NCBI RefSeq assembly: GCF_016903815.1
Contig: NZ_CP069973.1
DNA from: Escherichia coli
GTDB taxonomy: Bacteria > Pseudomonadota > Gammaproteobacteria > Enterobacterales > Enterobacteriaceae
Reading direction: 5' to 3' (one strand)
Length of the DNA stretch: 64,000 bases
The notes under the pieces were generated by a model that did no database searches, was not told the origin of the DNA, and worked only from the letters and a program-made list of their open reading frames with translations. The position numbers and the translations under genes were made by a program. Below are positions 3,504-43,332 of this stretch, one piece after another (position 1 is the first letter of the stretch; each line of letters begins with the position of its first letter).

Positions 3504-3533
3504 TTAAGTGCGTTAAAAACTCTGGTTAATTAC

Positions 3534-4908: not shown

Positions 4909-5023
4909 CAATTTATCGTGAATATATTCATCACAAGTGCCTACTATTGGTGGCTAAATTTCAGCCACCACGAAAAAAGCGATTAGTAGTAGCAAAAAAA
5001 AGTACCACTCGGAGGGTTTTCTG

Positions 5024-7945: not shown

Positions 7946-7981
7946 TCACACTATTCTCTCTTGAACCAGGGAGAATCCGTA

Positions 7982-8014
7982 ATGCCGGATGCGGTGTAAA
8001 AACTTTATCCGGCA
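7982..8014. repeat. REP-like palindrome / bidirectional terminator between yegS and gatR
   Basis: ATGCCGGAT...ATCCGGCAT perfect 9-bp inverted repeat of the GCCGGATG REP type. Confidence 0.4.
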
Positions 8015-8026
8015 TACAGAGCAATA

Positions 8027-8806
8027 CTACACCGTAATTAATTTCACCCGTGTCTTCTGCAATGCCAGTTTATCCACCTCTGACACGGCATCATCGGTAA
8101 TAATAATGTCAATTTTTTCGATTGGCAGTACCTGATTAAAACCGCGACGATTAAATTTCGATGAATCGAGAACGGCAATCACTTTATTTGCGGCTGTAAC
8201 CATCGCCCCGCTAATCGAATAACCTTCATTAAAGGTCGTAATACCATTAACCGCATCAATACCATCAGCACCGACAAACATTAAATCGGCATTAATATCC
8301 TGCAATGAACGCTCGGCAATGGAACCATGCATCGAGCGTGTTTTATGGCGGACGGTCCCACCACAGACGACCAGAGTAATGTCTTTATTTTCGGAAAGGG
8401 CAAATGCTGCCGGGAGACTGTTGGTAATCACCGTGATATTTTTGGCGGTCATTAATCCTTCGGCGATAAGCATTGTCGTACTTCCGCTGTCGAGAATAAC
8501 GGTCATCCCTTCGTGGATCATTTTGACTGCCGCCTGCGCTATTCTGTTTTTTGGCGCGCTGGCGAGCTGAAATCGCTCTTTAAACCCAACTTCCTGGGTC
8601 TCGGTTTCACTATTACCGGACATTATTTTCGCCGCACCGCCATGAAAGCGCGTAACCACGCCTTTTTGTTCGAGAAAGCGCAAATCGGCACGGATTGTCG
8701 CTTCCGAGGCAGCAAATACTCCCGCCAGATCCTGAACAAGCACGGTTCCCTGTTCATTCACTAATTGGATGATCTTATTCCTTCGCTCGAATGAATTCAT
8801 CGTCAT
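8027..8806 (-). CDS. gatR: DeoR-family repressor of the galactitol operon, intact
   Basis: 259-aa DeoR-type ORF adjacent to gatD; uninterrupted. Confidence 0.8.
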   Translation of the reverse strand: MTMNSFERRNKIIQLVNEQGTVLVQDLAGVFAASEATIRADLRFLEQKGVVTRFHGGAAKIMSGNSETETQEVGFKERFQLASAPKNRIAQAAVKMIHEGMTVILDSGSTTMLIAEGLMTAKNITVITNSLPAAFALSENKDITLVVCGGTVRHKTRSMHGSIAERSLQDINADLMFVGADGIDAVNGITTFNEGYSISGAMVTAANKVIAVLDSSKFNRRGFNQVLPIEKIDIIITDDAVSEVDKLALQKTRVKLITV

Positions 8807-12129: not shown

Positions 12130-14324
<2,195 letters not shown>

Positions 14325-20703: not shown

Positions 20704-21504
20704 TCACCACCAGGCGTGGAAGTGGTGAACCGGACCAATACCGTGACCAACTTCCAGCGTGTCGGCCTGGGCTAACGCCGATGAAAGCCAGCTTTTTGCC
20801 TCCTGTACGGTGTCAGCCCAGTTTGTATGGCGCGGGCGTAGTGCAGCCAACGCCGCAGAGAGCGTACAACCAGTGCCGTGGGTGTTTTGGGTCATAATGC
20901 GCGGTGCAGTAAATCGTTGTTCCCCCTCACGAGTAAACAGCCAGTCAGGGCTTTGCTCATCATCCAGATGACCACCTTTCATTAGCACTGCGCCACAGCC
21001 CATCGCCAACAGCGATCGCCCTTGTTCCAGCATTTCCTGTTCGGTGCGCGCGTGTGGCGCGTCGAGCAAGGCAGCAGCTTCGGGCAAGTTTGGCGTTATT
21101 AATGAAACCTGTGGCAATAATCGACTGCGCAGCGTAGCAACCGCCGAAGGTGAAAGCAGCGGGTCGCCGCTTTTTGCCAGCATAACGGTGTCGAGTACCA
21201 CGTTTTGGATCTGATAACGTTGCAACCGTTCTGCCACCGCTTCAACAATATCGGTTTCCGCCAACATACCGATTTTAGTGGTGTCGATTCGCACATCGCT
21301 GAACACCGAATCGAGCTGGGCGGCGACAAAATCAGGCTCAATGCGATACACCGACTGTACGCCACGGGTATTTTGCGCCACCAGTGCAGTAATCACTGAG
21401 CAACCATAAGCGCCAAGTGCCGAGAAGGTTTTAAGATCGGCCTGAATCCCCGCACCACCACTCGGATCAGTACCGGCAATCGTCAGAGCGTTAATTCGTT
21501 TCAT
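20704..21504 (-). CDS. thiD: Hydroxymethylpyrimidine/phosphomethylpyrimidine kinase
   Basis: 266 aa, [21 protein letters not shown]-terminus typical of ThiD. Confidence 0.9.
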
Positions 21505-22289
21505 GCCTGCACCTCCGGCGTCAATTGCCAGAGCGCATCAAGGAAATGTGGAACAAAACTGCCTGGCCCCTCGCTACTGGCGACTGCGCGTTCTCCGGCT
21601 TGTTTCATCCAGTGACAGGCAGATGCGATATTTTCCAGCGTATCGCCTGGTAGCGCACAACAGGCAGCGACAACCGCCGATAATGCACAGCCAGTTCCTA
21701 CCACTTTGGTCATTAACGGATCGCCACCGTGAATACCAATGATACGATGTCCATCGGTAACATAATCCATCTCGCCAGTGACCACGACGATTGCGCCAGT
21801 TTCCCGTGCCAGTGTTTGTGCAGCGGGTATCGCATTAGCTGCGGCGTCAGTGGTATCCACTCCCCGTCCACCATTAGCAACGCCAGCTAATGCCATGATT
21901 TCCGAAGCATTACCACGTATGGCGGTTGGCTTATGAGACAGAAGTTCCAGACAAAAACGGCGGCGATAATCGAGTGCACCCACCGCTACTGGATCAAGCG
22001 TCCAGGGTGTTTGAGAGCGTTTTGCCTGTTCAATGGCGGCACGCATCGCCTGTGCGCGTGGCTGCGTCAGCGTGCCAACGTTAATCAGCAACGCACTGGC
22101 GATAGCCGCAAACTGACTGGCCTCTTCGGTTTCGATAACCATCGCTGGGGATGCACCGAGCGCCAGCAAGGTATTGGCAGTAAAGGTTTGCACCACATCG
22201 TTGGTCATGCAGTGCACAAGAGGGGAATGTTGGTGAAAAAGATGTAACGCGTGCGCAGATTGCGCGGAACTCAGCAGGTCGACTTGCAT
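21501..22289 (-). CDS. thiM: Hydroxyethylthiazole kinase
   Basis: 262 aa, 4-nt overlap with thiD. Confidence 0.9.
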
Positions 22290-22291
22290 AG

Positions 22292-22450
22292 TTTGCTCCT
22301 GCCATAACGTGAAGAAGCAATGACCTGGTGGTCCGTGACTTCCCTACGCTGGCATTATCCAGATCAGGTGATACGGGTATTTCTCAGCCTTCACGCAGAA
22401 GGGCACCCCGAGTCGTTTGATTGCGATGATAAATCGCAGAGGAGGATGGT
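22292..22450 (-). promoter_or_regulatory. TPP riboswitch (thi-box) in thiMD leader
   Basis: Minus strand reads GGGGTGCCCTTCTGCGTGAAGGCTGAGAAATACCCGTATCACCTGATCTGGATAATGCCAGCGTAGGGAA with the conserved CTGAGA; thiM RBS lies in the downstream stem. Confidence 0.8.
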
Positions 22451-22511
22451 AATGTCCAGCGCACGCGTTGTAAACGAGTAAAAACCGCAGTTTTACAATC
22501 GCGTTAATAAA

Positions 22512-22784
22512 TTATTTGATATAAGAATCCAGCACCTTCAGAACGACATCCAGATCTTCTTCACGTTTTAGCTCATCCCCCTGGTGAACGATGTGTTCCG
22601 TCAGATGACCTTTAATCACTTCCCGCATCAGACCGTTTACCGCGCCACGGATAGCAGCAATCTGTTGTAAAACTGCAGCGCATTCGTGCGGCTCGTCGAG
22701 CATTTTCTTGAGCGCCACGACCTGGCCCTGAATCTTACTGGCACGCGCTTTCAGTTTCTGTTTATCACGGATGGTATGAGACAT
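22512..22784 (-). CDS. rcnR: Ni/Co-responsive repressor (CsoR/RcnR family)
   Basis: 90-aa CsoR-like protein divergent from rcnA. Confidence 0.9.
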
Positions 22785-22832
22785 GGCAACACCTGGTTAA
22801 TAAGAATATGAAAAATCATAGCACTATTAATC

Positions 22833-22866
22833 TACTGGGGGGTAGTATCAGGTACTGGGGGGGAGT
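22833..22866. promoter_or_regulatory. RcnR operator sites in rcnR-rcnA intergenic region
   Basis: Two TACT-G6/G7-AGTA inverted repeats (TACTGGGGGGTAGTA, TACTGGGGGGGAGTA). Confidence 0.7.
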
Positions 22867-22904
22867 AGAATCAGATTGCCGAATTAATACTAAGAATTAT
22901 TATC

Positions 22905-23729
22905 ATGACCGAATTTACAACTCTTCTTCAGCAAGGAAACGCCTGGTTCTTCATCCCCAGCGCCATCTTACTTGGTGCGCTTCATGGCCTGGAACCAGGG
23001 CACTCAAAAACGATGATGGCGGCGTTTATCATCGCCATCAAAGGCACCATTAAACAGGCGGTGATGCTCGGACTGGCAGCAACCATTTCGCATACCGCAG
23101 TGGTCTGGTTGATTGCCTTTGGCGGGATGGTGATCAGCAAGCGCTTTACTGCTCAATCAGCAGAACCGTGGCTCCAGTTGATTTCCGCAGTGATCATTAT
23201 TGGCACCGCGTTCTGGATGTTCTGGCGTACCTGGCGCGGCGAACGAAACTGGCTGGAGAATATGCACGAGCATGATCATGAGCATCATCACCACGATCAC
23301 GAAGATCACCACGACCATGGACATCATCACCATCACGAACATGGCGAGTATCAGGATGCCCATGCACGAGCCCATGCCAATGACATTAAACGACGCTTTG
23401 ATGGTAGAGAGGTCACCAACTGGCAAATTTTGCTATTTGGCTTAACCGGTGGCCTTATCCCCTGCCCGGCAGCAATTACCGTGCTGTTGATATGCATTCA
23501 GTTGAAAGCCCTGACACTGGGCGCAACACTGGTCGTCAGTTTCAGCATTGGCCTGGCGTTAACGCTTGTCACCGTAGGCGTTGGCGCAGCAATCAGCGTT
23601 CAGCAGGTCGCAAAACGCTGGAGCGGATTTAACACTCTCGCTAAACGCGCCCCCTATTTTTCCAGTCTGTTGATTGGCTTAGTTGGTGTGTATATGGGCG
23701 TACATGGCTTCATGGGCATAATGCGATAA
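22905..23729 (+). CDS. rcnA: Nickel/cobalt efflux permease
   Basis: 274-aa membrane protein with His-rich loop HEHDHEHHHHDHEDHHDHGHHHHHEH. Confidence 0.9.
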   Translation: MTEFTTLLQQGNAWFFIPSAILLGALHGLEPGHSKTMMAAFIIAIKGTIKQAVMLGLAATISHTAVVWLIAFGGMVISKRFTAQSAEPWLQLISAVIIIGTAFWMFWRTWRGERNWLENMHEHDHEHHHHDHEDHHDHGHHHHHEHGEYQDAHARAHANDIKRRFDGREVTNWQILLFGLTGGLIPCPAAITVLLICIQLKALTLGATLVVSFSIGLALTLVTVGVGAAISVQQVAKRWSGFNTLAKRAPYFSSLLIGLVGVYMGVHGFMGIMR

Positions 23730-23947
23730 CTCAATCCTTTAGGCTTGCATGTTATCTTCAGCCCAGGATGATTCTTAAATCAGCTATTTCCGCTGACTCT
23801 CTGCTCGCTAAGGATGCTTTTAGGGCATCCTTTCATTTACACTTTTTACGAAATCATGGGATCACTAACAAAATATCGCTTGCCAGTTATATTGTATGGC
23901 AGGAAAGATATGCGACTGATATTACAGATCCCCAAAGTGGAGAGTTT

Positions 23948-24286
23948 ATGACCATTAAAAATAAGATGTTGCTGGGTGCGCTTTTGCTGGTTACCAGTGC
24001 CGCCTGGGCCGCACCAGCCACCGCGGGTTCGACCAATACCTCGGGAATTTCTAAGTATGAGTTAAGCAGTTTCATTGCTGACTTTAAGCATTTCAAACCA
24101 GGCGATACCGTCCCAGAGATGTACCGCACCGATGAGTACAACATTAAGCAGTGGCAGTTACGTAACCTGCCCGCGCCTGATGCCGGGACGCACTGGACCT
24201 ATATGGGTGGCGCGTACGTGTTGATCAGCGACACCGACGGTAAAATCATTAAAGCCTACGACGGTGAGATTTTTTATCATCGCTAA
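23948..24286 (+). CDS. rcnB: Periplasmic Ni/Co homeostasis protein (112 aa)
   Basis: Signal peptide MTIKNKMLLGALLLVTSAAWA; track ORF starts 60 codons upstream. Confidence 0.8.
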   Translation: MTIKNKMLLGALLLVTSAAWAAPATAGSTNTSGISKYELSSFIADFKHFKPGDTVPEMYRTDEYNIKQWQLRNLPAPDAGTHWTYMGGAYVLISDTDGKIIKAYDGEIFYHR

Positions 24287-24311
24287 AAAAAGCCCCCTCA
24301 TCATGAGGGGG
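24285..24311 (-). terminator. Intrinsic terminator of the yeh fimbrial operon
   Basis: GC hairpin CCCCCTCA/TGAGGGGG followed on the minus strand by a T7 run, 57 nt past the yehA stop. Confidence 0.5.
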
Positions 24312-24367
24312 AAATGCAGACACCTTGTTATTTTTTATTATTAGCCACTTGCTCGTCTTGCTTGTTA

Positions 24368-25402
24368 TTAGTCGTATTTCACGTTGATTAATGCGGTTGC
24401 CTCCAGTGCGCCAGATTTAACTTTGTTTGTATCGTAGACGTAGTAACTGGCAGTTATCGGAATTGAAACCGTTGTATCTGTAAGTTTTGACTTCGCAGCA
24501 ACTTCCTTTAAATTTGTATATCCTTTACTGCTGTTAGTGATATTTAAAAGTGTGACTGGCGAACCATTACTTTCAAGAATAAACCCTACGCCATTATCTT
24601 CCGCACCTTTCAGGATCGTGTTACTACTGCCCCACAAATCAGAACTTGATAAATACACCTGCATTTTTCGTGATGTTTGATTTTGTTGACCTAATAAATT
24701 TTTACAACGCAGAATAATATCTCCTTTTTTACTATTTATTGTTGCTTTGTTACCTGTGGCTGGTAATTGTGAAACGGGAGTACTCTCTAAAGTAATTAAT
24801 AAATCGTCCGGTTTGCAGGTCGTTGTTATCGGGTTATATGACAATGCCAGATTAAAGGAATAGACACCTGCATTTTGTGCCAATGCATTTCTGTAGCTAT
24901 TTACACATGCATCCCATGACTTGCCACCTAATAAACACAGTAGAAATTGTACTGCGGCACTCCCGCGTGTCGATGATGAAGCACTGGATAATGTCGCAAC
25001 TCCATTAATCATCACTGAACCGCCGCCCCCCGCAGAAACATTCACTTTTGCATTACTGGCTGCAGGTGTCACCGTTACCGAATAACCATTGGTGAAACTG
25101 GTCTGATTATTTGACAACGTGATGTTATTTTTATTGGTCCATTCAAAATGTAAATTTAATTTAATGGTATCGTTATAAAGTCCAACAATAATATCCGACG
25201 GGCTCATAGGGGTGATAGTATTTGTACTCACGCATGACGAATCATTAAAATTATGCTCATAGGTCGCCATTTGTGTTTGAGTAAGTGCAAAATCCCCCTG
25301 AACAACCAAATTGTGCTGAACAGATAACTCACTATAACATGCTGCATAGCTCACTGGCATAACCATCATCATTAATATAAATAGCATTATGCGAATTTTC
25401 AT
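24368..25402 (-). CDS. yehA: Fimbrial adhesin-like protein
   Basis: 344-aa secreted protein, last gene of the chaperone-usher cluster. Confidence 0.75.
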   Translation of the reverse strand: MKIRIMLFILMMMVMPVSYAACYSELSVQHNLVVQGDFALTQTQMATYEHNFNDSSCVSTNTITPMSPSDIIVGLYNDTIKLNLHFEWTNKNNITLSNNQTSFTNGYSVTVTPAASNAKVNVSAGGGGSVMINGVATLSSASSSTRGSAAVQFLLCLLGGKSWDACVNSYRNALAQNAGVYSFNLALSYNPITTTCKPDDLLITLESTPVSQLPATGNKATINSKKGDIILRCKNLLGQQNQTSRKMQVYLSSSDLWGSSNTILKGAEDNGVGFILESNGSPVTLLNITNSSKGYTNLKEVAAKSKLTDTTVSIPITASYYVYDTNKVKSGALEATALINVKYD

Positions 25403-25417
25403 AGAACCACCTGACTA

Positions 25418-27898
25418 TTACTGGCAAATATAATTTCTACTTTCATCAATCTCTTTACCGAAGGTGATTGTGCATGAAAGTCCTTGTTGCTTATTAATTG
25501 CCACATTAACCGACGGCGGTACTTCATTGGTGCGAATAAATAACTGGCTTCCCTGGCCGACAACGCCAATATTATGACCATGGATATCATTGACTTCATA
25601 ACCAAACGTTAATGGTTGCCCATCCGTTCTTAACGCTTTTATAAACCAGGGCTTGCGCTGATCGGTATCAAAATTAACCAGTACAACCGCGCCGCGATAA
25701 GGTGCGGCAATTTTCCGGTTACCGCGCAATTCTGCTTCGCTATCGCTTTGCGACACATCCAGCATCAGGTGATTTTCCCGATAAGGTGTCATTCCGTCGT
25801 ATACCACCACTCCATTACGGTTTGTTGTGCGATATTTTTGCCCATTGACATAAGCATCTTTAATTCCTGGCGCATTCATCACTGCAAACGTTTCGGAAAG
25901 ACGGTTCGCCAGATTAACGCCCTCCGACCAGGCGACAATGCCCCCTGAAACACTGGCTCCAGCCTGTAGATAAGTACTCGACTGACTATAACTGCCATTC
26001 ACTGTCGCAACCGGCGCGTTCCAGGTTAAATTCGCTCCAGCTGTCGTTTCATTTCCCTGATGCTGATGACTCAGGTTGACCCCATAGTTAAATTGATCCC
26101 GGCTTCCAACGGTTCCCGATAATCCCGTATTATTTGAGGCAAAACCCTGATCATCAAACGTCGTTGAGTTAGACATATATATTTGCCGACGAGGCGTCGT
26201 AACGTCATCACCCCAATCAAAGGGAATCGATATAAAAATATTAAAACGTTTCTCTTCATGATGATTCTCGTCATAAGCCTGGCTTGCCGCGAGGGTATAG
26301 CTTATCCGTCGCAGGTTGTTGGAATAACTCAACTGATAATCCTTACTGCTGCCGCTACGCCCCCAGTAATCTCGCCATAACGTACTTAAGGACACAGAAC
26401 CCCAGCCTTCTGGCAATGACTGGCTCATATTGGCAGAAAAGCTATTTTTACGGCCAAAATCGTTCTGGTAATAATCGGCAATGTCATAGATATCGTTTTC
26501 ATCACGGCGATAATTATCTTTATTGTTTGCCCAAACATGATCGTTAAATGTCCGGTAATCACGCGACGAATAACGCCAGGCCGCCAGACCAAAACGCGTC
26601 GACGTTTGGCTCACAAATTTGTTGTAGGCAATTTGATAACTTTGCCCGTCAAACACATCGCCGTTGTCTTGTTTACTATGCGACTTCGTGGCATCGACGG
26701 AAATGGCACCAATGCGTGTATTCCAGCCAGTCCCCAAAGTGAACGCGTAATAATTATTCGCGACCATCGATCCGCCATACAGCGTCAATAAGTTATTAAA
26801 ACCATACTGATAACCCGCCTGGACAAAATCACTTTGTTTGCTCGCCCCTTCAATATGGCTACGACCCGCCGCAAAATCATATTTCGACACGCCAGGTTGC
26901 AGCATATTCGGCACCGCTGCATAAGGCACCAGATAGGTGGTTACCGAACCGTCCGCCTCTTTCACGCTGACATCAAGATCTGCTCCACCACCGGCCAACT
27001 GCAAATCTGTAATCGCAAACGGGCCAGGAGGAACCTCTTTCTGATAAACCACAAAACCGTTCTGTTCAATAGTTACCAGCGCGTTACTCTGAGCAATCCC
27101 CTGCACCCGTGGAGTAAAATTCTGTTTCGAGTTAGGCAACATCTGCATATCACGAAACAACCGCACACCGCTGAAGCGAACAGAATCAAAAATATCGCTT
27201 GATGTGTACATATCACCCACGCGAAGCGTGCCGAGAAGTTGGGCAAATCCACGTTCCAGATACAGGGTATTGCTTTTCCACCCCCCTGGATTGCTATTTG
27301 TTTTACTGAAACTGGCATCAGAATGCAGTTGCCACCCCAGTAAGTTTAACCCGCTGTTAAAACGTACATATGTACTCTTGCTATTACCCGACGCTTTATA
27401 GTCGCTGTAATACTGACTCACATAATAAGAGGTATAAAACGCATTAATACCCCGCTCCCAGTTTTCCGGTGGAACATAGCCACTTTCCAGTTCTTCCACC
27501 CACGCCTGCGGGACACTGAAATCGAGACGAAAAACTCCGATATCCCAGGTATAGCTCCCACCCTGAACAAGTTGCTCAAATGTTAAACATTGCTTACCGC
27601 TGGCAAAGTTATCGGTATTAATGCCTAACCGCTTGATAATTTCCCTTGATATACATGTTTCTTGCGGGTTGTCTTTAACAATGATCTCATATTTCCCGCG
27701 CCATTGCTTATTGACATAAATATCGATGTCATACTGCCCCGGCAAGGGTTGATTATCATCAAGACGAATATTTGCAACCTGCTGGTCTTTCATTCCACCT
27801 ATCATAAAATGGGTATCAAAGGTTTCTTCAGCTGCATAAGCTTCAATGCCGAGCAATAACGCTACGATTGCTGATGCAAGTGGGGTCATTCTCAACAT
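25418..27898 (-). CDS. yehB: Fimbrial outer-membrane usher
   Basis: 826 aa from MLRMTPLA; usher-like beta-barrel protein. Confidence 0.85.
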   Translation of the reverse strand: MLRMTPLASAIVALLLGIEAYAAEETFDTHFMIGGMKDQQVANIRLDDNQPLPGQYDIDIYVNKQWRGKYEIIVKDNPQETCISREIIKRLGINTDNFASGKQCLTFEQLVQGGSYTWDIGVFRLDFSVPQAWVEELESGYVPPENWERGINAFYTSYYVSQYYSDYKASGNSKSTYVRFNSGLNLLGWQLHSDASFSKTNSNPGGWKSNTLYLERGFAQLLGTLRVGDMYTSSDIFDSVRFSGVRLFRDMQMLPNSKQNFTPRVQGIAQSNALVTIEQNGFVVYQKEVPPGPFAITDLQLAGGGADLDVSVKEADGSVTTYLVPYAAVPNMLQPGVSKYDFAAGRSHIEGASKQSDFVQAGYQYGFNNLLTLYGGSMVANNYYAFTLGTGWNTRIGAISVDATKSHSKQDNGDVFDGQSYQIAYNKFVSQTSTRFGLAAWRYSSRDYRTFNDHVWANNKDNYRRDENDIYDIADYYQNDFGRKNSFSANMSQSLPEGWGSVSLSTLWRDYWGRSGSSKDYQLSYSNNLRRISYTLAASQAYDENHHEEKRFNIFISIPFDWGDDVTTPRRQIYMSNSTTFDDQGFASNNTGLSGTVGSRDQFNYGVNLSHQHQGNETTAGANLTWNAPVATVNGSYSQSSTYLQAGASVSGGIVAWSEGVNLANRLSETFAVMNAPGIKDAYVNGQKYRTTNRNGVVVYDGMTPYRENHLMLDVSQSDSEAELRGNRKIAAPYRGAVVLVNFDTDQRKPWFIKALRTDGQPLTFGYEVNDIHGHNIGVVGQGSQLFIRTNEVPPSVNVAINKQQGLSCTITFGKEIDESRNYICQ

Positions 27899-27913
27899 AG
27901 GCAGCTCCTGCAA

Positions 27914-28588
27914 TTAAATTTTGTCACTAATATAGTTGCCATGGTCATCGATAATGGTCAGATACCAGTTATTCGCATTATTACTTTTGACATTAATACT
28001 CTGACTTTCTAAGGGGGCAATCATAATAGTTTCATAATTGACTTTGACATTATTAGCTTTGACATCCGAAATCGTTACCCAATTTGCTGAGTCATTTTTT
28101 ATCACCAATCCATTGCCACTGCGATTTACCAGTAACTTTTTAAATGTCGCTTTATTTACTGGCGCAATACCCGCAGGCCGGTAAAACAATTTAATTCTGT
28201 TTTGCATTGCAAATTTCAGTGCATTCTTGCCCTCTTGCTCTGGACTATTTGGTGGAATATCCAGAACATTCAGATAAAAAATGCTCTCTTTATTAGTGGG
28301 CAGTTTATTCGGCATAATTTTGATTTTTACTTGCTGCCCGGAATTTGCCCCTATTTTTGCCACTGGTGGCGTTAACATGAAAGGAACCTGAATTTTTTCT
28401 GGTGGTAACGACGTATCGCCATCATCAATCCACGCCTGCAGCAGCGAAGAACGGTTTCCCTGATTCATCAACTGCACCATCACTTCTTTATTTTCTGCCG
28501 GGTAAATAATACGCGTCCCGTAGATAACAATACCGGCATGTGCAGGAAGGACCATAGAAGAAATGAGTAAAGCTAATAATCCTTTCAT
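27914..28588 (-). CDS. yehC: Periplasmic fimbrial chaperone (PapD-like)
   Basis: 224 aa with signal peptide and chaperone-like N-terminal domain. Confidence 0.85.
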   Translation of the reverse strand: MKGLLALLISSMVLPAHAGIVIYGTRIIYPAENKEVMVQLMNQGNRSSLLQAWIDDGDTSLPPEKIQVPFMLTPPVAKIGANSGQQVKIKIMPNKLPTNKESIFYLNVLDIPPNSPEQEGKNALKFAMQNRIKLFYRPAGIAPVNKATFKKLLVNRSGNGLVIKNDSANWVTISDVKANNVKVNYETIMIAPLESQSINVKSNNANNWYLTIIDDHGNYISDKI

Positions 28589-28668
28589 CTTAATGCCTCT
28601 TAAATTAAAAGGCCGCCATGGGGATAGCGGCCATGTTTATTACCTGGAGAAACTTGAAGTTTTATTTA

Positions 28669-29211
28669 TTAATCCTGCGCCACACGCATAACCAGAGAAG
28701 ATAACACATCACCTGATTGCACTGAATTATCTGTCAGCTTCAGGTATTTTGCTTTAAACGGAATAGCATATTGACCTTCCGCTGTTTTATAACTCTCAAT
28801 GTTAAAAGGTGCAGAAACATCCAGGACATCGCTGTTATCACCTAAATAGAGATAGTACCCCACGGTATCGTTGCTACTGGCTATCGCCTTATCGTTTCCG
28901 GTTATTTTATCGTTGGTAATCAACGAGAGTTTTACACCAGCAACTTCTTTCGGACAGCTAATTTTTAACATGCTGCTGGTTACACCGACTGCATCATCAT
29001 AGGTCGAGTATTTAGCTTTACCTTCAAAGACAGTGGTTGGTACAGTTGGCATATTAATACTTACTGAATCGCCACCCGCTTCGAATTTACACGGAGATTC
29101 TGCAATATTCCCTTTAATGGTTAATGTTCCGGTATCAACGTCTGCGGCAAATACCCCAGCGCTCATAAAAAAAGAAGAAAAGACAGCGGCAGCAATAATT
29201 GAACGTTTCAT
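28669..29211 (-). CDS. yehD: Major fimbrial subunit
   Basis: 180-aa pilin-like protein with signal peptide and conserved Cys pair. Confidence 0.8.
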   Translation of the reverse strand: MKRSIIAAAVFSSFFMSAGVFAADVDTGTLTIKGNIAESPCKFEAGGDSVSINMPTVPTTVFEGKAKYSTYDDAVGVTSSMLKISCPKEVAGVKLSLITNDKITGNDKAIASSNDTVGYYLYLGDNSDVLDVSAPFNIESYKTAEGQYAIPFKAKYLKLTDNSVQSGDVLSSLVMRVAQD

Positions 29212-29431
29212 AATATGTTCCTTAATAAAATTTATTTTTTGGTTGTTAAGAGTCTGTATCTCTTGGAAACAAATTTCTCACATCAAAAAAGTTGCCGAAA
29301 TGTAAACATATTGTTTTATTGATTTAAAACAAATTAACTATTGCAATATAAACACAACAAATACTTAAGCATATTAAATATTTATCACATCTATTAATTA
29401 ATGCAGATTTTTGTAAGTGGTATTATTGATA

Positions 29432-29472
29432 TAAATAAAAAAGCTGAAATCATTCACACGAATGATTTCAGC
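29432..29472 (-). terminator. Intrinsic terminator downstream of yehE
   Basis: Perfect 13-bp stem GCTGAAATCATTC/GAATGATTTCAGC, 4-nt loop, then T-run on the minus strand. Confidence 0.5.
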
Positions 29473-29506
29473 TTTCTAAATCCGATTAAAAAACCAGGGT
29501 GGCAAA

Positions 29507-29788
29507 TTAATCGTAGCGATTTAACACGATTCGACGTTTGCTATCGCTACCTGCAACAACCACTTCTGTCGTTACACCTTTGACTGGCGAAGAAACCTGA
29601 TGACGGGTATCAACATCATACGTTAACTGACCACAATACTGTTGAGGTTGACCATTAACCATAGCCATACTGCATGTTGGGGGACTGATCCTGCCATTAA
29701 TCGTTAATGTGGCAGTCTGTGAAGAGAACGCGGGAGAAGCCATTCCATAGGCAAGAAAAATAATTCCTGACAGCCAGTACTTATTCAT
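29507..29788 (-). CDS. yehE: Small secreted protein YehE
   Basis: 93 aa with signal peptide. Confidence 0.7.
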   Translation of the reverse strand: MNKYWLSGIIFLAYGMASPAFSSQTATLTINGRISPPTCSMAMVNGQPQQYCGQLTYDVDTRHQVSSPVKGVTTEVVVAGSDSKRRIVLNRYD

Positions 29789-29977
29789 TGAACGTTATCC
29801 CTGTAGTAAAGGTTATGCCTGGATAGAATGAGTGCATAACAAACTATAGCTGTACATCCACTACACAGCCACGAAGGATGATAATGAAGCATTGCCTGTA
29901 CGATCAATCGACTTTATAGAGTTTCGGACGAAGGTCCGCAGAATATTTGCAGCATTAAATAAGTGTTCATTAATGCG

Positions 29978-30020
29978 GCAAAAACAAATACACCGCATCA
30001 ATGTAACATCTCTGCGGTGT
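29978..30020 (-). terminator. Putative mrp terminator
   Basis: Hairpin ACACCGCA...TGCGGTGT followed by ATTTGTTTTT on the minus strand, 30 nt past the mrp stop. Confidence 0.4.
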
Positions 30021-30050
30021 ATGAAAAACAACCAAAAAGGTTAATACGCG

Positions 30051-31160
30051 TTAGACCGCGCGGAAGGAAATCTCGCCAGGAATGACTTCTCCCTGCCAAT
30101 AAAGCTGGGCTGCAACGCGGTCAGCCAGCTGGCGGTAGATAGCGGTAAATTCGCTCTCCGGACGGCTGATAACCGTTGGCGTGCCTTTATCGAGATCTTC
30201 ACGTAAGGAGATGTGTAACGGCATCTGCCCCAGCAACTGCGTGTGATATTTCTCGGCCAGTTTCTCTGCACCACCGGTACCGAAAATCGGTTCATGGTGA
30301 CCACAGTTACTGCAAATATGCACACTCATGTTCTCGACAATACCGAGCACCGGAACCTCGACTTTCTCGAACATCACAATGCCTTTTTTCGCATCGATCA
30401 ACGCAATGTCCTGCGGAGTGGTGACCACTACCGCGCCAGTTACTGGTATGTTTTGTGCCAGTGTCAATTGAATGTCACCGGTGCCTGGCGGCATATCAAG
30501 CACCAGATAGTCGAGATCCGGCCACAAGGTTTCCTGCAACATCTGCATTAACGCCTTGCTCGCCATCGGACCACGCCACACCATCGCATTGTCGTCAGTG
30601 ACCAGATAACCAATTGAATTGGTTGCCAGTCCATGAGACATAATCGGTGCCATATGGGTACCGTCCGGCGAAGTTGGACGCTGATTTTCTGCACCCAGCA
30701 TGGTGGGTATTGATGGGCCGTAGATATCGGCGTCCAGAATGCCGACTTTCGCCCCTTCCGCCGCCAGTGCCAGCGCCAGGTTTACCGCCGTGGAGGATTT
30801 ACCCACGCCGCCTTTACCGGAGCTGACCGCAATGATGTTCTTCACGCCGTTAATTCCCGGCTGATTCTTCACGCGTTTTAAGGTGGCGATATTGTGCGAC
30901 AGTTTCCAGTCGATAGCTTTCGCCCCGGTGATGCGCAGCAGTTCGGCGCTACATTGCTCTTTTAACTCTTCGAACGCGCTATGCCAGACGAATGGCATAA
31001 CCAGTTCCACATGCAACGTGTCGTCCATCCAGGCGACATGGTGCAACGCTTTCAGCGTGGTGAGGTTATGCTTCAGGGTTGGGTGCTGAAAATTGGCCAG
31101 TGTCCCGGCGACCATTGCGCGCAAGGCTTCTGGTGATTTGGCCTGGGATTGTTCGTTCAT
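30051..31160 (-). CDS. mrp: Fe-S cluster carrier ATPase Mrp/ApbC
   Basis: 369 aa from MNEQSQ; deviant Walker A SGKGGVGKSS and CxxC. Confidence 0.9.
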   Translation of the reverse strand: MNEQSQAKSPEALRAMVAGTLANFQHPTLKHNLTTLKALHHVAWMDDTLHVELVMPFVWHSAFEELKEQCSAELLRITGAKAIDWKLSHNIATLKRVKNQPGINGVKNIIAVSSGKGGVGKSSTAVNLALALAAEGAKVGILDADIYGPSIPTMLGAENQRPTSPDGTHMAPIMSHGLATNSIGYLVTDDNAMVWRGPMASKALMQMLQETLWPDLDYLVLDMPPGTGDIQLTLAQNIPVTGAVVVTTPQDIALIDAKKGIVMFEKVEVPVLGIVENMSVHICSNCGHHEPIFGTGGAEKLAEKYHTQLLGQMPLHISLREDLDKGTPTVISRPESEFTAIYRQLADRVAAQLYWQGEVIPGEISFRAV

Positions 31161-31291
31161 CCCGACTCCTTTTTTGTATAGATAAACCATCAGCTGATAG
31201 TTTACCTGAAGAATATAGAGAAGTACTTACTTAACATTTTTCCATTTGGTACTATCTAACCCCTTTTCACTATTAAGAAGTAATGCCTACT

Positions 31292-33325
31292 ATGACTCAA
31301 GTCGCGAAGAAAATTCTGGTGACGTGCGCACTGCCGTACGCTAACGGCTCAATCCACCTCGGCCATATGCTGGAGCACATCCAGGCTGATGTCTGGGTCC
31401 GTTACCAGCGAATGCGCGGCCACGAGGTCAACTTCATCTGCGCCGACGATGCCCACGGCACACCGATCATGCTGAAAGCTCAGCAGCTCGGTATCACCCC
31501 GGAGCAGATGATTGGCGAAATGAGTCAGGAGCATCAGACTGATTTCGCAGGCTTTAACATCAGCTATGACAACTATCACTCGACGCACAGCGAAGAGAAC
31601 CGCCAGTTGTCAGAACTTATCTACTCTCGCCTGAAAGAAAACGGTTTTATTAAAAACCGCACCATCTCTCAGCTTTACGATCCGGAAAAAGGCATGTTCC
31701 TGCCGGACCGTTTTGTAAAAGGCACCTGCCCGAAATGTAAATCCCCGGATCAATACGGCGATAACTGCGAAGTCTGCGGTGCGACCTACAGCCCGACTGA
31801 ACTGATCGAGCCGAAATCGGTGGTTTCTGGCGCTACCCCGGTAATGCGTGATTCTGAACACTTCTTCTTTGATCTGCCCTCTTTCAGCGAAATGTTGCAG
31901 GCATGGACCCGCAGCGGTGCGTTGCAGGAGCAGGTGGCAAACAAAATGCAGGAGTGGTTTGAATCCGGCCTGCAACAGTGGGATATCTCCCGCGACGCCC
32001 CTTACTTCGGTTTTGAAATTCCGAACGCGCCGGGCAAATATTTCTACGTCTGGCTGGACGCACCGATTGGCTACATGGGTTCCTTCAAGAATCTGTGCGA
32101 CAAACGCGGCAACACCACCAGCTTCGATGAATACTGGAAGAAAGATTCCACCGCCGAGCTGTACCACTTCATCGGTAAAGATATCGTTTACTTCCACAGC
32201 CTGTTCTGGCCTGCCATGCTGGAAGGCAGCAACTTCCGCAAGCCGACTAACCTGTTTGTTCATGGCTATGTGACGGTGAACGGCGCGAAGATGTCCAAGT
32301 CTCGCGGCACCTTTATTAAAGCCAGTACCTGGCTGAATCATTTTGATGCTGACAGCCTGCGTTACTACTACACTGCGAAACTCTCTTCGCGCATTGATGA
32401 TATCGATCTCAACCTGGAAGATTTCGTTCAGCGTGTGAATGCCGATATCGTGAATAAAGTGGTTAACCTGGCATCCCGTAACGCTGGCTTTATCAACAAG
32501 CGTTTTGACGGCGTGCTGGCAAGCGAACTGGCTGACCCGCAGTTGTACAAAACCTTCACGGATGCCGCTGAAGTGATTGGTGAAGCGTGGGAAAGCCGCG
32601 AATTTGGTAAAGCAGTACGCGAAATTATGGCGCTGGCTGATCTGGCTAACCGCTATGTCGATGAACAGGCTCCGTGGGTGGTGGCGAAACAGGAAGGCCG
32701 CGATGCCGACCTGCAGGCAATTTGCTCGATGGGCATCAACCTGTTCCGCGTGCTGATGACTTACCTGAAGCCGGTACTGCCGAAACTGACCGAGCGTGCA
32801 GAAGCATTCCTCAATACAGAACTGACCTGGCATGGTATCCAGCAACCGCTGTTGGGCCATAAAGTGAATCCGTTCAAGGCGCTGTATAACCGCATCGATA
32901 TGAAGCAGGTTGAAGCACTGGTGGAAGCATCTAAAGAAGAAGTAAAAGCCGCTGCCGCGCCGGTAACTGGCCCGCTGGCTGACGATCCAATCCAGGAAAC
33001 TATCACCTTTGATGACTTCGCCAAAGTTGACCTGCGCGTGGCACTGATTGAAAACGCAGAGTTTGTTGAAGGTTCCGACAAACTGCTGCGCCTGACGCTG
33101 GATCTCGGCGGTGAAAAACGCAATGTCTTCTCCGGCATTCGTTCTGCTTACCCGGATCCGCAGGCACTGATTGGTCGTCACACCATTATGGTGGCTAACC
33201 TGGCACCACGTAAAATGCGCTTCGGTATCTCCGAAGGCATGGTGATGGCTGCCGGTCCTGGCGGGAAAGATATTTTCCTGCTAAGCCCGGATGCCGGTGC
33301 TAAACCGGGTCATCAGGTGAAATAA
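31292..33325 (+). CDS. metG: Methionyl-tRNA synthetase
   Basis: 677 aa from [14 protein letters not shown] (HLGH), KMSKS and zinc knuckles CPKC...CEVC. Confidence 0.95.
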
Positions 33326-33334
33326 TCTCCTTTC

Positions 33335-33366
33335 AAGGCGCTGTATCGACAGCGCCTTTTCTTTAT
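33335..33366 (+). terminator. metG intrinsic terminator
   Basis: Hairpin AGGCGCTGT-ATCG-ACAGCGCCT followed by TTTTCTTT. Confidence 0.6.
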
Positions 33367-33465
33367 AAATTCCTAAAGTTGTTTTCTTGCGATTTTGTCT
33401 CTCTCTAACCCGCATAAATACTGGTAGCATCAGCATTCAACTGGATAAAATTACAGGGATGCAGA

Positions 33466-36400
33466 ATGAGGCACTTTATCTTTCAGGACGAAAAATCACA
33501 TAAATTCTGGGCGGTGGAGCAACAGGGAAACGAGTTGCATATCTGTTGGGGAAAAGTTGGCACCAAAGGGCAAAACCAGGTAAAAAGTTTTGCGGATGCT
33601 GCGGCAGCGGCAAAAGCGGAGCTTAAGCTGATCGCAGAGAAAACGAAAAAAGGCTATGTGGAAAATGCTTTAGCAAACGTGCATATCCCCCCCATCACCA
33701 AAGCCACTCCTGAAGTTGAAACCTCCCCTGAGAGTAAAAACAAACGCCCATGGGTGGCTGATGATGCAGTCATTCCGGTAACTGGCGATATTAATCGATT
33801 TGCTTTTCCTCATCGCTCTCGCCCCAGAGAGATCAATTATCTGTACAAAGATGGCCAAATATGGAAGCGCATCGCGAATAACACCAGGGCATATGACCCC
33901 GACAATAATTACCGCTCTTATCCTGAAAACTGGCAGCTGGCGTTTGCCGAGTTACAAAGGCGAATTCTGAATAATCAACAAACAGGAAGTATACAATCTG
34001 ATGCGGCATTGCTCTGGAATTTATGGAACTCTTACTCTACAGATGAACTGGTCGATGACTTAGTCATTCGCTGTGGTCTGGAAACTACCGTTGAAATCGC
34101 CCTTCTCGCTCTTCAACTCAAATATAAACCAGTAAAAGCCGACGTCACCACCATTATTCCCCCTGATCTCAAAGCAGAATCACTACCGAACTGGCATCAA
34201 CGTCTATGTCATCATCTTTCACTCGCTTCAGAAGATGAGTGGCAACGCTGTGTAGATAAAGTTCTCGCTGCTATTCCCTCGCTATCCCCAGCACGGCAAC
34301 CTTTTGCGGCGTTACTGCTCCCTGAACGCCCGGATATTGCCAATGCTATGGCGCTACGTTATGCAGATCAAAACGTTCCGGCGATGACCTGGTTAAGACT
34401 GGTGGTAACCGATGACGCCGCTCTGACTACAGCAGAAAAATACGACTTCCCACCGTTGTATCATGATTTTCGCGCTTATCTGGCAATGTTGCTGGCAAAT
34501 AATGGGGTGCGCGGTGTAAGCCGGATACTTCTTGAGTTTACGGAAGAGCATTCTGACAATCCCACTTATCTCTTCGAGCGCATCAGCGAGACTGAAGATC
34601 TTGTCAAATGGCTATGGAAAACGAATCACCCGGATGCGATTCAAATTCTGATCCTCGGTGTAATTGGCAAGAAAAAGCACCTGGAATACTTAAGCAAAGC
34701 CTGTCAAAAACATCCCGCTGCGGCTCTTGCCGCTTATGCAACTTTACTGGCAATACATGAAGATGCACAGTGGCGTAAAGCGCTTGTCAAACTGATTACC
34801 GCCACGCCAGATTTAGTCACTGACGTCATTCCCTGGGTTAATGCTAAAGCGGCAGGCATCTTATCTGAATGTCGTACTCAGTTAGTCGCTGAAGAATGTG
34901 AATACGCCACTGCGGATATGTTGCCGGAGCTGTTTGTCGCTCCACCGTGGGTAATAAATAAGAAAACGAATGTAATACCCGTATTTGATTTACCGGTGCT
35001 TCCCATCCCTGCAGTCACTGACATCACGCCAGGAATTACAGAGTTAATCAGTCATACTGACATATCCAGATTCAGTGAAATCGCGCAATATCAGTCATCA
35101 CAGCAAACCTTATTTACCGACCTGCCACTAATTGAAAAAGAAAGCTGGGAGACATCTTTCATTCCTTTTACACCAGAACAACAAATCCTTTGGCAATTAG
35201 GTTTTAATGAATGGCTGCATTGCGAAGATGACTTACATGAAAAAAAATATATACCGCAAAGCGCTGTTGATGCCTTGTTGCGCTTTGATTTTCCAGCACT
35301 AAAAGCTGAGTTTGCGAAATATCACAACAATGCCAACAAAAGCTGGAATCTATCTGCGCTTTGTTACTTACCGGGACAACAGGCGATTTCATTTCTCAAC
35401 CAAATAATCATTGAGGAGCGATATTCAGGTGAGAAAGAGATTCTGGCAGTTTTTGGTAGTACGGCCATTCCTGCGTTTATGACCTGCTTGCAACGAGATC
35501 ATCAACGACTGTGGATATTCACCCTCTTTATTGGGGCCAGTGAACTAGCCTTACCAATGGCGCAGCGGTTACAGAAAAAAATGGCTTACAAGGATGCCAT
35601 TAATTGGCTGGCAAATAACCCGCGCCATGCCGCCGCCGGGCTACTGCCTTTGGCGCTGGGCAAACCGTGCCAAAATCGGGAATATGCCCGCCAGGCATTC
35701 CGCCTGCTAGTGAAATTAAACCAGCGAGAAACGATTGAAGAAATCGGCCGGAGATACAACCAACCTGATGTTTTAGCTGCGCTGGCAACATTGTTCGATA
35801 GCGATCCGCTGGAAGAATATCCCGCTAAAATCGCCCCACTGCCCGGCTTTTATCAGTTCACCTTATGGCGCAGACCACGGCTTAAAAGTAACAACCTGCC
35901 TCTGCCAGATGACGCTATGCGCCACCTGGGCACAATGTTGAGCTTTCCACGCGACATTACCTCCTACGCTGGGCTGGCGACCATCAAAGAGACCTTCACC
36001 CACGAATCACTGGCTGACTTTGGCTGGGATCTCTACACGGCATGGACAGAAGCTGGCGCACCCGCAAAAGAAAACTGGGCATTTACTTCGCTTGGGATTT
36101 TAGGCAATGACGACACCGCACGTAAATTAACCCCGCTTATCCGTGCCTGGCCGGGTGAATCCCAGCATAAACGCGCGGTTTACGGGCTGGATGTATTAGC
36201 TGATATTGGCAGCGATGTTGCGCTAATGCTGCTTAATGGCATCGCGCGAAAAATTAAATTCAAAGCATTACAGGAACATGCCCGCGAGAAAATCAACATA
36301 GTTGCTGAAAACCGTGGGCTGACTATGGCTGAACTGGAAGACCGCCTGGCTCCAGATTTAGGGCTTGATAACAGTGGCTCGCTGATACTGGATTTCGGCC

Positions 36401-41079: not shown

Positions 41080-43278
41080 ATGGACAAGGAATTACCGTGG
41101 CTGGCGGATAACGCCCAAGTGGAACTGAAATATAAAAAAGGCAAAACGCCGCTCAGCCATCGCAGTTGGCCGGGCGAACCGGTGCCTGTTATCACTGAAA
41201 GCCTCATCCAGACACTGGGTGATGAATTGCTACAAAAAGCTGAGAAGAAAAAAAACATTGTCTGGCGTTATGAAAATTTTTCACTGGAGTGGCAGTCGGC
41301 CATTACGCAGGCCATCAACTTGATTGGCGAACACAAACCCTCAGTTCCGGCCCGGACAATGGCGGCGCTAGCCTGTATCGCGCAAAATGATAGCCAACAG
41401 TTGCTCGACGAAATCGTCCAACAAGAGGGACTGGAATATGCGACTGAGGTGGTGATTGCACGCCAGTTTATTACACGATGTTATGAAAGTGATCCTCTGC
41501 TAGTGACATTGCAGTATCAGAACGAGGATTATGGCTATGGTTATCGATCAGAAACCTATAACGAATTCGATCTCCGACTGCGTAAGCATCTCTCTCTGGC
41601 AGAGGAAAGCAGCTGGCAGCGTTGCGCCGACAAACTCATTGCCGCACTGCCAGGAATAACCAAAGTTCGCCGCCCTTTTATTGCTCTGATCCTCCCGGAA
41701 AAACCAGAAATCGCCAATGAGTTGGTAAGCCTTGAATGCCCGTGGACTCATTTTCATTCTAAGGAGTGGTTAAAAGTTGTTGCTATTGACCCCAGAGCGG
41801 TGAGAAAACTCGAACGCTACTGGAGCCAGGATATATTTAGCGATCGGGAAGCCAGCTACATGTCGCATGAAAACCACTTCGGCTACGCGGCCTGCGCTGC
41901 CCTTTTGCGCGAACAAGGACTGGCAGCCGTTCCACGCCTGGCAATGTATGCCCATAAAGAAGATTGCGGCAGTCTGCTGGTACAAATTAACCATCCGCAG
42001 GTCATCCGCACCCTGCTGTTAGTTGCTGATAAAAACAAACCCAGCCTGCAACGTGTAGCTAAATACAGTAAAAATTTCCCCCATGCGACGCTTGCCGCAC
42101 TGGCAGAACTGCTGGCGCTAAAAGAACCACCTACGCGCCCTGGTTATCCAATCATCGAAGACAAAAAGCTGCCTGCACAGCAAAAAGCACGTGATGAATA
42201 CTGGCGTACGCTGTTACAAACGCTGATGGCATCGCAGCCACAACTGGCAGAAGAGGTGATGCCGTGGTTAAGTACTCAAGCCCGGTCAGTGCTGAATAGT
42301 TATTTATCGGCACCGCCTAAAACGGTTATTGATAGCACCGATAACAGCCAAATGCCTGAAATCCTCGTTTCACCACCGTGGCGTAGTAAGAAAAAAATGA
42401 CAGTTCCACGTCTTGATTTGGCACCGTTCGAATTAACGCCGCAAGTTTACTGGCAACCAGGCGAACGAGAGAGGCTTGCCGCCACTGAGTCTGCCCGTTA
42501 TTTCAGCACGGAATCTCTTGCGGAACGCATGGAACATAAAAGTGGACGAGTTGTACTACAGGAGCTGGGTTTTGGAGATGATGTATGGCTGTTTCTGAAT
42601 TATATACTCCCCGGAAAACTGGATGCTGCACGCAATTCACTCATTGTTCAGTGGCATTACTACCAGGGGCGGGTTGAAGAGATCCTGAATGGCTGGAACT
42701 CCCCGGAAGCACAATTAGCAGAACAGGCGCTTCGCAGCGGTCACGTAGAAGTGTTAATTAACATATGGGAAAATGACAGCTACTCACGCTATCGTCGGGA
42801 AAAGAGTATCTGGAACCTGTATTTATTGGCACAGTTGCCGCGTGAGATGGCTTTGACTTTCTGGCTACGTATCAATGAGAAAAAGCATCTGTTCGCGGGT
42901 GAGGACTATTTTCTCAGTATCTTCGGATTGGATGCTCTACCAGGTCTGCTGTTGGCTTTTTCACATCGTCCAAAAGAAACATTTCCGTTAATTTTAAATT
43001 TTGGCGCAACAGAACTGGCCCTGCCCGTTGCCCGCGTCTGGCGACGTTTCGCGGCGCAGCGTGATCTGGCTCGCCAGTGGATTTTACAATGGCCGGAACA
43101 TACGGCTACTGCACTTATCCCTCTTGTCTTCACCAAATCCAGCGATAATAGCGAAGCTGCATTACTTGCCCTACGTTTACTTTACGAACAGGGACATGGT
43201 GAATTGCTGCAAACCGCGGCAAACCGCTGGCAGCGTACAGATGTATGGCCTGCCCCGGTCTGGCAAAACTGGTGCTGA
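41080..43278 (+). CDS. Third MolR/YehI-family paralog (732 aa), no WGR module, ends at TGA
   Basis: Aligns to YehI residues ~100-800 (LPWLA, LRLRKHLSLAEES, PEKPEIA, VSPPW.SKKK blocks); starts 10 nt after yehI stop with AAGGAAAGA RBS; no P-loop. Confidence 0.6.
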   Translation: MDKELPWLADNAQVELKYKKGKTPLSHRSWPGEPVPVITESLIQTLGDELLQKAEKKKNIVWRYENFSLEWQSAITQAINLIGEHKPSVPARTMAALACIAQNDSQQLLDEIVQQEGLEYATEVVIARQFITRCYESDPLLVTLQYQNEDYGYGYRSETYNEFDLRLRKHLSLAEESSWQRCADKLIAALPGITKVRRPFIALILPEKPEIANELVSLECPWTHFHSKEWLKVVAIDPRAVRKLERYWSQDIFSDREASYMSHENHFGYAACAALLREQGLAAVPRLAMYAHKEDCGSLLVQINHPQVIRTLLLVADKNKPSLQRVAKYSKNFPHATLAALAELLALKEPPTRPGYPIIEDKKLPAQQKARDEYWRTLLQTLMASQPQLAEEVMPWLSTQARSVLNSYLSAPPKTVIDSTDNSQMPEILVSPPWRSKKKMTVPRLDLAPFELTPQVYWQPGERERLAATESARYFSTESLAERMEHKSGRVVLQELGFGDDVWLFLNYILPGKLDAARNSLIVQWHYYQGRVEEILNGWNSPEAQLAEQALRSGHVEVLINIWENDSYSRYRREKSIWNLYLLAQLPREMALTFWLRINEKKHLFAGEDYFLSIFGLDALPGLLLAFSHRPKETFPLILNFGATELALPVARVWRRFAAQRDLARQWILQWPEHTATALIPLVFTKSSDNSEAALLALRLLYEQGHGELLQTAANRWQRTDVWPAPVWQNWC

Positions 43279-43332
43279 CAGTGGGGCTTACAGCAGGCGG
43301 GAGAACAACTGCTAAAAACGGTTCTCACCCGT

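Follow-up and report, generated by a model that had tools for sequence, protein, structure and literature searches.

The closest described relatives of the locus studied here are the yehDCBA operons of Escherichia coli, which encode the Yeh pilus, a chaperone–usher system assigned to the gamma-4 usher clade (PMC7098969, PMC11287998, PMC12778044). Wurpel et al. described Yeh as "core-associated" and common to Salmonella, where it is called Stc, and Citrobacter at the same site (PMC3559732). The K-12 operon is listed as a cryptic chaperone–usher operon of the H-NS regulon on the basis of the Kahramanoglou and Oshima data sets, overlaps a GIST island, and is up 3.6-fold on SlyA over-production (PMC5797941); repression by H-NS is attributed there to Korea et al. 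(2010), a study of H-NS and cryptic fimbriae that we cite through PMC5797941 and PMC3966885. The spacer between yehD and the neighboring small gene yehE is one of 78 "promoter islands" that bind both H-NS and RNA polymerase (Table 1 of PMC3661553), and these islands are tied to predicted foreign genes and overlap IslandViewer and GIST islands (PMC3661553). BolA induces yehD and yehC (PMC4337573). In enterohemorrhagic E. coli (EHEC), the native promoter gives a single transcript of the four genes; the yehD leader is bound by CsrA, YehD is induced by ethanolamine, and both colonization and the expression of virulence genes are influenced by the locus (PMC11287998). Induced expression yields thin, flexible pili of the gamma-4 type (PMC7098969), and the solved receptor-binding domain of the tip adhesin (PDB 9N4G) has an α-helical flap, binds pectin and dietary fiber, and aids gut colonization (PMC12778044). 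Here we analyze a 64,000-nucleotide stretch of E. coli DNA (hereafter the window), in which a yehDCBA cluster and yehE occupy positions 24368-29788.

We are highly confident that this region is the chromosomal Yeh (gamma-4) pilus locus in the allelic form of K-12 and UTI89, an H-NS-silenced and old low-GC locus in which yehE is a separate gene. Compared with K-12 MG1655 (yehDCBA, b2111-b2108, and yehE, b2112), which belongs to a different E. coli lineage, the site, the gene order and, except for yehC, the gene lengths are the same, and the cluster is therefore intact; the proteins are 92.6-99.4% identical and the genes 96-97% identical at the nucleotide level. The spacer is 292 bp long with 24.3% GC in K-12 and 295 bp long with 24.7% GC in the window, and the two are 89.8% identical. 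UTI89 Yeh has the same gamma-4 four-gene architecture, and the receptor-binding domain of the window's adhesin differs from that of UTI89 at two of 173 positions (S to N and T to A); the UTI89 nomenclature is reversed, with A denoting the pilin and D the adhesin. A yehDCBA cluster and yehE with an AT-rich, H-NS-bound control region are already in the literature, as are the promoter island, the age of the locus and the adhesin structure, so that nothing in the finding itself is new; our analysis sharpens the anatomy.

The Yeh genes and their products

Five intact open reading frames (ORFs) are present in the ORF list of the window and in the RefSeq annotation of identical sequence:

24368-25402, minus strand: yehA, 344 aa, two-domain tip adhesin ("YehD" in the nomenclature of uropathogenic E. 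coli, UPEC)
25418-27898, minus strand: yehB, 826 aa, outer-membrane usher
27914-28588, minus strand: yehC, 224 aa, PapD-like periplasmic chaperone
28669-29211, minus strand: yehD, 180 aa, major pilin ("YehA" in UPEC nomenclature)
29507-29788, minus strand: yehE, 93 aa, small secreted DUF2574 protein

The Pfam domains agree with these assignments, and the set of usher, chaperone, subunit and adhesin genes plus yehE that an earlier note on this DNA had described is thus complete. E. coli strain 7/2 (NZ_CP023820.1) and several further isolates match positions 23500-31500 with 100% identity. On the right the cluster is followed by apbC/mrp (30051-31160) and then metG, and on the left by the convergent gene rcnB, which ends at 24286; this fixed chromosomal position between rcnB and apbC (mrp)/metG is that of the Yeh/Stc type.

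YehB contains the PapC_N, Usher and PapC_C domains of a three-domain usher (Pfam, E = 2e-195) and scores 1750.9 bits against NCBIfam NF011763 (cut-off 933). YehC has the PapD_N and PapD_C domains of a two-domain chaperone (Pfam); its signal peptide is followed by GIVIYGTR, which supplies Arg8, and Lys115 (mature numbering) lies in RIKLFYRP, so that the canonical anchor residues are present. YehD is recognized as a major pilin by the Pfam Fimbrial model (31.2 bits, cut-off 25.6) and carries a signal peptide, the N-terminal motif TGTLTIKGNIAESPC, and Cys41 and Cys86. YehA has the two-domain composition of a tip adhesin, with a receptor-binding domain at residues 21-193, the counterpart of the UTI89 YehD domain in PDB 9N4G, and a C-terminal Fimbrial (pilin) domain at residues 189-344 (Pfam); its score against NCBIfam NF011788 is 678.7 bits (cut-off 395). 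YehD scores 112.7 bits against the NCBIfam equivalog "fimbrial protein YehD", below the cut-off of 136, and the best NCBIfam matches of YehC, to StcB and related chaperones, also fall under their curated cut-offs (347 vs. 500 and 322 vs. 372). Given these scores, the YehD and StcB/chaperone models appear to have been built on another allele. The yehC frame in the window is limited to 224 aa, because no start codon lies between it and the upstream stop, and K-12 annotates yehC at 239 aa. The 224-aa form opens with a normal signal peptide, which suggests that the K-12 start is over-extended.

We propose that YehD pilins and the YehA tip adhesin would be exported by Sec, that YehC would fold and cap them by donor-strand complementation, and that the YehB usher would polymerize them into a thin, flexible pilus whose tip domain would bind pectin and plant fiber in the gut lumen. 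The export, chaperone and usher steps are those of the established chaperone–usher pathway.

The AT-rich control region and the place of yehE

The AT-rich region upstream of yehD that the earlier note had placed at 29212-29500 is real and is the point of lowest GC in the 64 kb. This span has 24.2% GC and the whole yehD-yehE spacer (29212-29506, 295 bp) 24.7%; the lowest 289-bp segment starts at 29206 (23.2%), and the segments as low as 29212-29500 make up 0.06% of the total and all lie at that site. The yeh genes range from 38.6 to 45.8% GC, with 34-45% at third codon positions (GC3), compared with 51.1 ± 4.2% and GC3 of 54.7 ± 7.6% for the 39 other genes of the window. Their GC is clearly under the flanking level, as in H-NS-silenced xenogeneic loci. 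In codon usage yehA and yehE are the most atypical genes of the window, and yehB, yehC and yehD are mildly so. The calculation of GC content and codon usage that the earlier note had suggested as a check thus sets the yeh genes apart from their flanks, rather than leaving their composition indistinguishable, and the proposal of silencing by H-NS agrees with published work on the K-12 orthologs (PMC5797941, PMC3661553).

The elements of the control region and of the transcript downstream of it are as follows:

29438-29477, minus strand: yehE intrinsic terminator, 18-bp stem, -23.7 kcal/mol, z = -7.0
29311-29332, no strand assigned: inverted repeat TTGTTTTA-N6-TAAAACAA in a conserved block, candidate operator
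29217-29225, minus strand: yehD Shine-Dalgarno region TTAAGGAAC, with AAGGAA invariant across genera
28611-28632, minus strand: G+C-rich stem-loop between the pilin gene yehD and the chaperone gene yehC
24293-24311, minus strand: yehDCBA intrinsic terminator, CCCCCTCA-TGA-TGAGGGGG followed by CTTTTTTT, 8-bp G+C stem and T7

The spacer was aligned across ten loci, which comprise three E. coli alleles, E. albertii, Escherichia sp. E1V33, S. enterica arizonae, two Citrobacter species and two further enterobacteria, and in this alignment it divides into four parts. The first is the yehE terminator (29476-29434), and the second a fast-evolving AT stretch (29433-29357) with 50-55% identity to Salmonella and Citrobacter. 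The third is a conserved block of 130 bp on the minus strand (29356-29227), a candidate promoter, operator and 5′ untranslated region, which is 72-73% identical in Salmonella and C. youngae, 68% in Citrobacter MGH106 and 84-96% within Escherichia, and is thus far better kept than the YehD protein across those genera (29-36%). The fourth is the ribosome-binding region (29226-29195), in which AAGGAA is invariant. The CsrA binding that has been published probably occurs at this motif, given that it is invariant and holds the sole GG near the yehD start codon.

The inverted repeat of the conserved block is nearly invariant in the ten sequences, which represent at least three genera, and is not known to match any regulator consensus. 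Beside it lies an invariant GTTTACATTGCGG at 29307-29295, from which the window copy differs by one base. A relaxed promoter scan pairs a weak -35 element, TTAAAT, at 17-bp spacing with the -10 element TACATT (29304-29299); as a guess at the level of the consensus, this pairing would put the inverted repeat over the -35 element and the spacer. A conserved RNA fold in the yehD leader was considered and rejected (consensus energy -2.4 kcal/mol, no useful covariation), and we accordingly read the conserved block as a promoter or operator acting at the level of DNA. An Rfam scan of 21000-33500 at E ≤ 1 found no RNA family in the spacer; it returned the thiamine pyrophosphate riboswitch upstream of thiM (22324-22420, minus strand, RF00059, 71.8 bits), as expected, and a sub-threshold Hrs1 match that falls on the yehA/rcnB terminator. 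An invertible-element switch was likewise rejected, as the locus contains no recombinase or regulator gene and no long flanking inverted repeats. The inverted repeats that touch the spacer, terminator arms aside, are short and imperfect (11-20 nt, 75-92% complementary). The sequence GATC, on which a Pap-type Dam/Lrp phase variation would depend, is absent from 29195-29445. Lacking a recombinase gene, long flanking inverted repeats and GATC sites, the locus is unlikely to have a phase switch of the fim or pap type.

Strong hairpin terminators had been said to flank the cluster. This holds at the yehA end, where the terminator sits in the 81-bp gap shared with the convergent rcnB and has a T-run after the stem on the minus strand only; the strongest hairpin lies instead inside the flagged AT-rich span, where it splits yehE from yehDCBA. 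In the ten-locus alignment six of the 14 pairs of the yehE terminator are altered in both partners, and pairing holds in 93.6% of cells, compared with 37-47% when the partners are slid. The stem-loop between yehD and yehC is kept in position, with unrelated sequences, at nine of nine loci from Escherichia, Salmonella, Citrobacter and others; by analogy it is probably a partial terminator or mRNA stabilizer that sets the ratio of pilin to assembly machinery. A generic terminator scan gave eight terminator-like structures where shuffling predicts 7.5, which is not above chance; the individual hairpins are supported by their position and conservation, not by the count.

We propose that yehDCBA would be a single minus-strand transcription unit, with transcription starting within the 130-bp conserved part of the AT-rich spacer. 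The 24% GC spacer would serve as a nucleation platform for H-NS and keep the operon nearly silent in laboratory culture, and silencing would be relieved by H-NS antagonists and other inputs, of which SlyA, BolA, low temperature and ethanolamine are published, with CsrA acting on the yehD leader. The stem-loop after yehD would probably raise the pilin-to-machinery ratio and, to judge from the anatomy, the terminator after yehA would close the unit, whereas yehE would be a separate small gene upstream, with its own conserved terminator, that is evolutionarily linked to Yeh-type operons. No observation speaks against the identity of the locus; several points limit the mechanistic steps. H-NS occupancy was recorded in K-12, and the K-12 spacer is 89.8% identical to that of the window; the H-NS high-affinity motif TCGATAAATT has only two matches in the spacer, each with two mismatches, which is uninformative. 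A simple sigma-70 scan found no good minus-strand promoter in the spacer, its count of 13 being not above chance (17.8 expected from shuffling), and the relaxed scan of the spacer yields only many weak, overlapping candidates. The role given to the yehD-yehC stem-loop, finally, draws on analogy with the pap and fim operons.

The alternative that survives best holds that yehE heads a five-gene operon, yehEDCBA, in which the AT-rich region would be an internal spacer and not the main promoter. The gene yehE is co-oriented with and adjacent to yehD in Escherichia, Salmonella and Citrobacter, and when ECs2914-2918 were cloned from the yehE ATG behind PtetA, pili appeared only after induction (PMC7098969), a result that implies some transcription across the spacer. 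The sequence just upstream of yehE also contains the best CsrA-consensus match. However, a strong intrinsic terminator stands right after yehE and is kept across genera by compensatory changes, the 130-bp block before yehD is conserved in the manner of a promoter or operator, the DUF2574 gene is divergent from a Yeh-like operon in one locus (L013, below), and work by reverse transcription PCR treats the four-gene transcript as beginning with yehD (PMC11287998). We therefore regard a five-gene operon as quite unlikely and retain the reading in which yehE and yehDCBA are separate units. The region upstream of yehE contains the following:

29789-30050, minus strand: yehE upstream region, with the apbC terminator and promoter-like and CsrA-like sites
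29988-30022, minus strand: apbC terminator, upstream of yehE

The promoter-like site, TTGATC-18-TATCAT (29907-29878), is a match to the consensus only. A search with the CsrA consensus gave fewer matches across the window than expected by chance. The best local match (29795-29806, minus strand, CTACAGGGATAA/CUACAGGGAUAA) agrees with RUACARGGAUGU at nine of 12 positions and lies 7 nt upstream of the yehE start; it precedes yehE and not yehD, although the published CsrA binding is to the yehD 5′ untranslated region.

YehE itself matches PF10836 (DUF2574) over its full length (positions 1-93 of 93, 170.1 bits, cut-off 27.5). Its N-terminal 45 residues are homologous to residues 1-47 of YehD (hhalign probability 93.6%, E = 2e-7), the common part consisting of a signal peptide and a TATLTINGR..PTC motif, and neither the Ig-like fold of a pilin nor a match to the Fimbrial domain (PF00419) was detected in it. 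The family is narrow, with 32 representatives, nearly all of about 90 aa, among 1.84 billion proteins in an exhaustive HMMER search, from which long multi-stretch matches that look like low-complexity sequence were set aside. In its members RxIVLNRYD is invariant at the C terminus, and ATLTINGR..PTC is conserved downstream of the signal peptide. DUF2574 genes are linked to Yeh-type operons in four of five genomic contexts; at L013 and L014 the gene is divergent from a Yeh-like four-gene operon in a different chromosomal context, and orphan copies occur in Klebsiella-like genomes. A literature search found no paper on YehE function. Because DUF2574 genes adjoin Yeh-type operons in syntenic and other contexts, a functional link between YehE and Yeh is plausible though unproven. 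We are cautious in extending this link to a dedicated Yeh/Stc accessory factor, a periplasmic protein derived from the 5′ end of a pilin gene and acting as a partner of YehC or YehB. Such a factor may, for example, be an assembly modulator or terminator that has kept the donor-strand-like motif and the first cysteine. The YehD homology, the RxIVLNRYD motif and the operon linkage are consistent with this possibility; the lack of fold support and the orphan copies in Klebsiella weigh against it, and we consider it unlikely.

Age of the locus and its variation

An 8-kb query covering the locus matches 5,425 of 5,426 complete E. coli genomes, 5,233 of which cover at least 80% of it, and the locus is present in 5,412-5,425 of the 5,426 (>99%). 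Among the 5,678 places that match 23500-31500, 221 are on plasmids and presumably represent partial usher/fimbrial matches or IS-flanked fragments. Outside E. coli, the order metG-apbC-yehE-pilin-chaperone-usher-adhesin-rcnB is kept in nine loci, from Escherichia spp., E. albertii, E. whittamii, two Citrobacter species, S. enterica arizonae and two more genomes. Identity to the window's proteins across the syntenic genera is graded from the flanks to the pilus surface:

ApbC and MetG: 95-99%
YehB: 62-82%
YehC: 57-71%
YehE: 38-54%
YehD: 29-36%
Adhesin: often undetectable

In seven other taxa the spacer measures 272-291 bp at 25-30% GC, and the genes stay under the flanking GC. Given that synteny, spacer length and spacer GC are all retained across genera, low GC is an old, maintained and vertically inherited trait. 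The locus predates the split of Escherichia, Salmonella and Citrobacter, and its low GC does not testify to a recent transfer. Though it behaves as a silenced island, it belongs to the ancient core, and its surface subunits evolve fast. The description of the cluster as horizontally acquired stands in a deep sense only, and not in the sense of a recent event.

The AT-richness might still be an un-ameliorated relic of a recent transfer that has no regulatory function of its own, as the low GC and atypical codon usage would allow and as island-prediction programs, which flag the region (PMC3661553), would suggest. A recent arrival would be patchy within the species and absent from the site in sister genera. 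The locus is instead found in nearly every complete E. coli genome; Salmonella, Citrobacter, E. albertii and others have it at this site too, with spacer length and GC kept, and one part of the spacer has diverged far less than yehD. This reading is already largely refuted, and we regard it as very improbable. That the cluster is a decaying, dead remnant is scarcely credible: expression is low in laboratory K-12 (PMC5797941) and disruptions occur (LR-03 and LF3-1, below), but the five ORFs are intact at K-12 lengths, yehC start site apart, 96% of genomes retain at least 80% of the 8-kb region, and assembled pili, pectin binding and colonization phenotypes are published. The term cryptic, applied to the cluster in the earlier note, follows its listing in PMC5797941 and is dated by the native EHEC expression, gut role and pectin binding since described (PMC11287998, PMC12778044).

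The yehD-yehE segment varies unusually strongly among E. coli genomes, most of which are 90-95% identical to the window, with 372 at 80-90%. Per-gene comparison with the window reveals a second deep allele at the same site in O26/O157 strains, with identities of 33% for YehA, 86% for YehD, 70% for YehE, 88% for YehC and 93% for YehB, and 100% and 99% for the flanking ApbC and MetG. The adhesin domain of this allele matches PDB 8V9V ("YhlD" of O157 Sakai) at 170 of 171 residues; the Yhl adhesin gene lies at 1711-2745 of locus L005 and 7001-8035 of locus L026, the counterpart of yehA at 24368-25402 of the window. The yehA type occurs in 4,605 of the 5,426 complete genomes and the yhl type in 650; the median number of places per genome is one. 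Based on the common rcnB-apbC site and this median, our comparison suggests that "Yeh" and "Yhl" are allelic forms of a single locus, not separate operons. According to a recent paper, about half of E. coli genomes have yehD, and half of the strains in phylogroup E have both genes. Recombination has made a mosaic of the locus in strain LR-03, where yehA and yehB resemble those of K-12 and yehD and yehE those of EHEC; in this strain yehD carries a frameshift and rcnB an IS1 insertion. In strain LF3-1 an IS1-associated deletion extends from mid-yehA through yehE and removes most of the cluster, and such losses by IS1 are rare.

Elsewhere in the window, the RefSeq annotation of identical sequence records, at 1-6037, 12130-13387 and 41080-44772, a P2-like prophage remnant adjoining yegR (integrase, cox and a truncated replication endonuclease), a frameshifted gatZ, and two pseudogene fragments in the yehL/yehM region.

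Relation to known systems

The leads that follow from this anatomy are modest and of specialist interest. The three-part structure of the flagged region, namely a covarying terminator, a fast-evolving AT stretch and a conserved block with a repeat, makes the Yeh regulator experimentally approachable; the Yeh and Yhl adhesins, with their different ligands, are to be seen as alternative alleles at one site; and yehE is a candidate accessory gene.

The Yhl pilus of Sakai O157:H7 is encoded by the same five genes at the same rcnB-apbC site (adhesin domain, PDB 8V9V), and its published ligand is the colonic epithelium, whereas that of Yeh is pectin (PMC12778044). The stcABCD operon of Salmonella enterica occupies the orthologous position between apbC/metG and rcnB and has a yehE homolog upstream (PMC3559732). 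Its spacer is likewise AT-rich (278 bp, 24.8% GC), and its proteins are 34% (pilin), 81% (usher) and 71% (chaperone) identical to those of the window, with no detectable similarity in the adhesin. Unlike the fim and pap operons, the Yeh locus has no fimS-type switch, recombinase, GATC sites in the spacer or locus-encoded regulator; it shares with them the same chaperone–usher logic, an H-NS-repressed AT-rich promoter region and a stem-loop after the gene of the major subunit.

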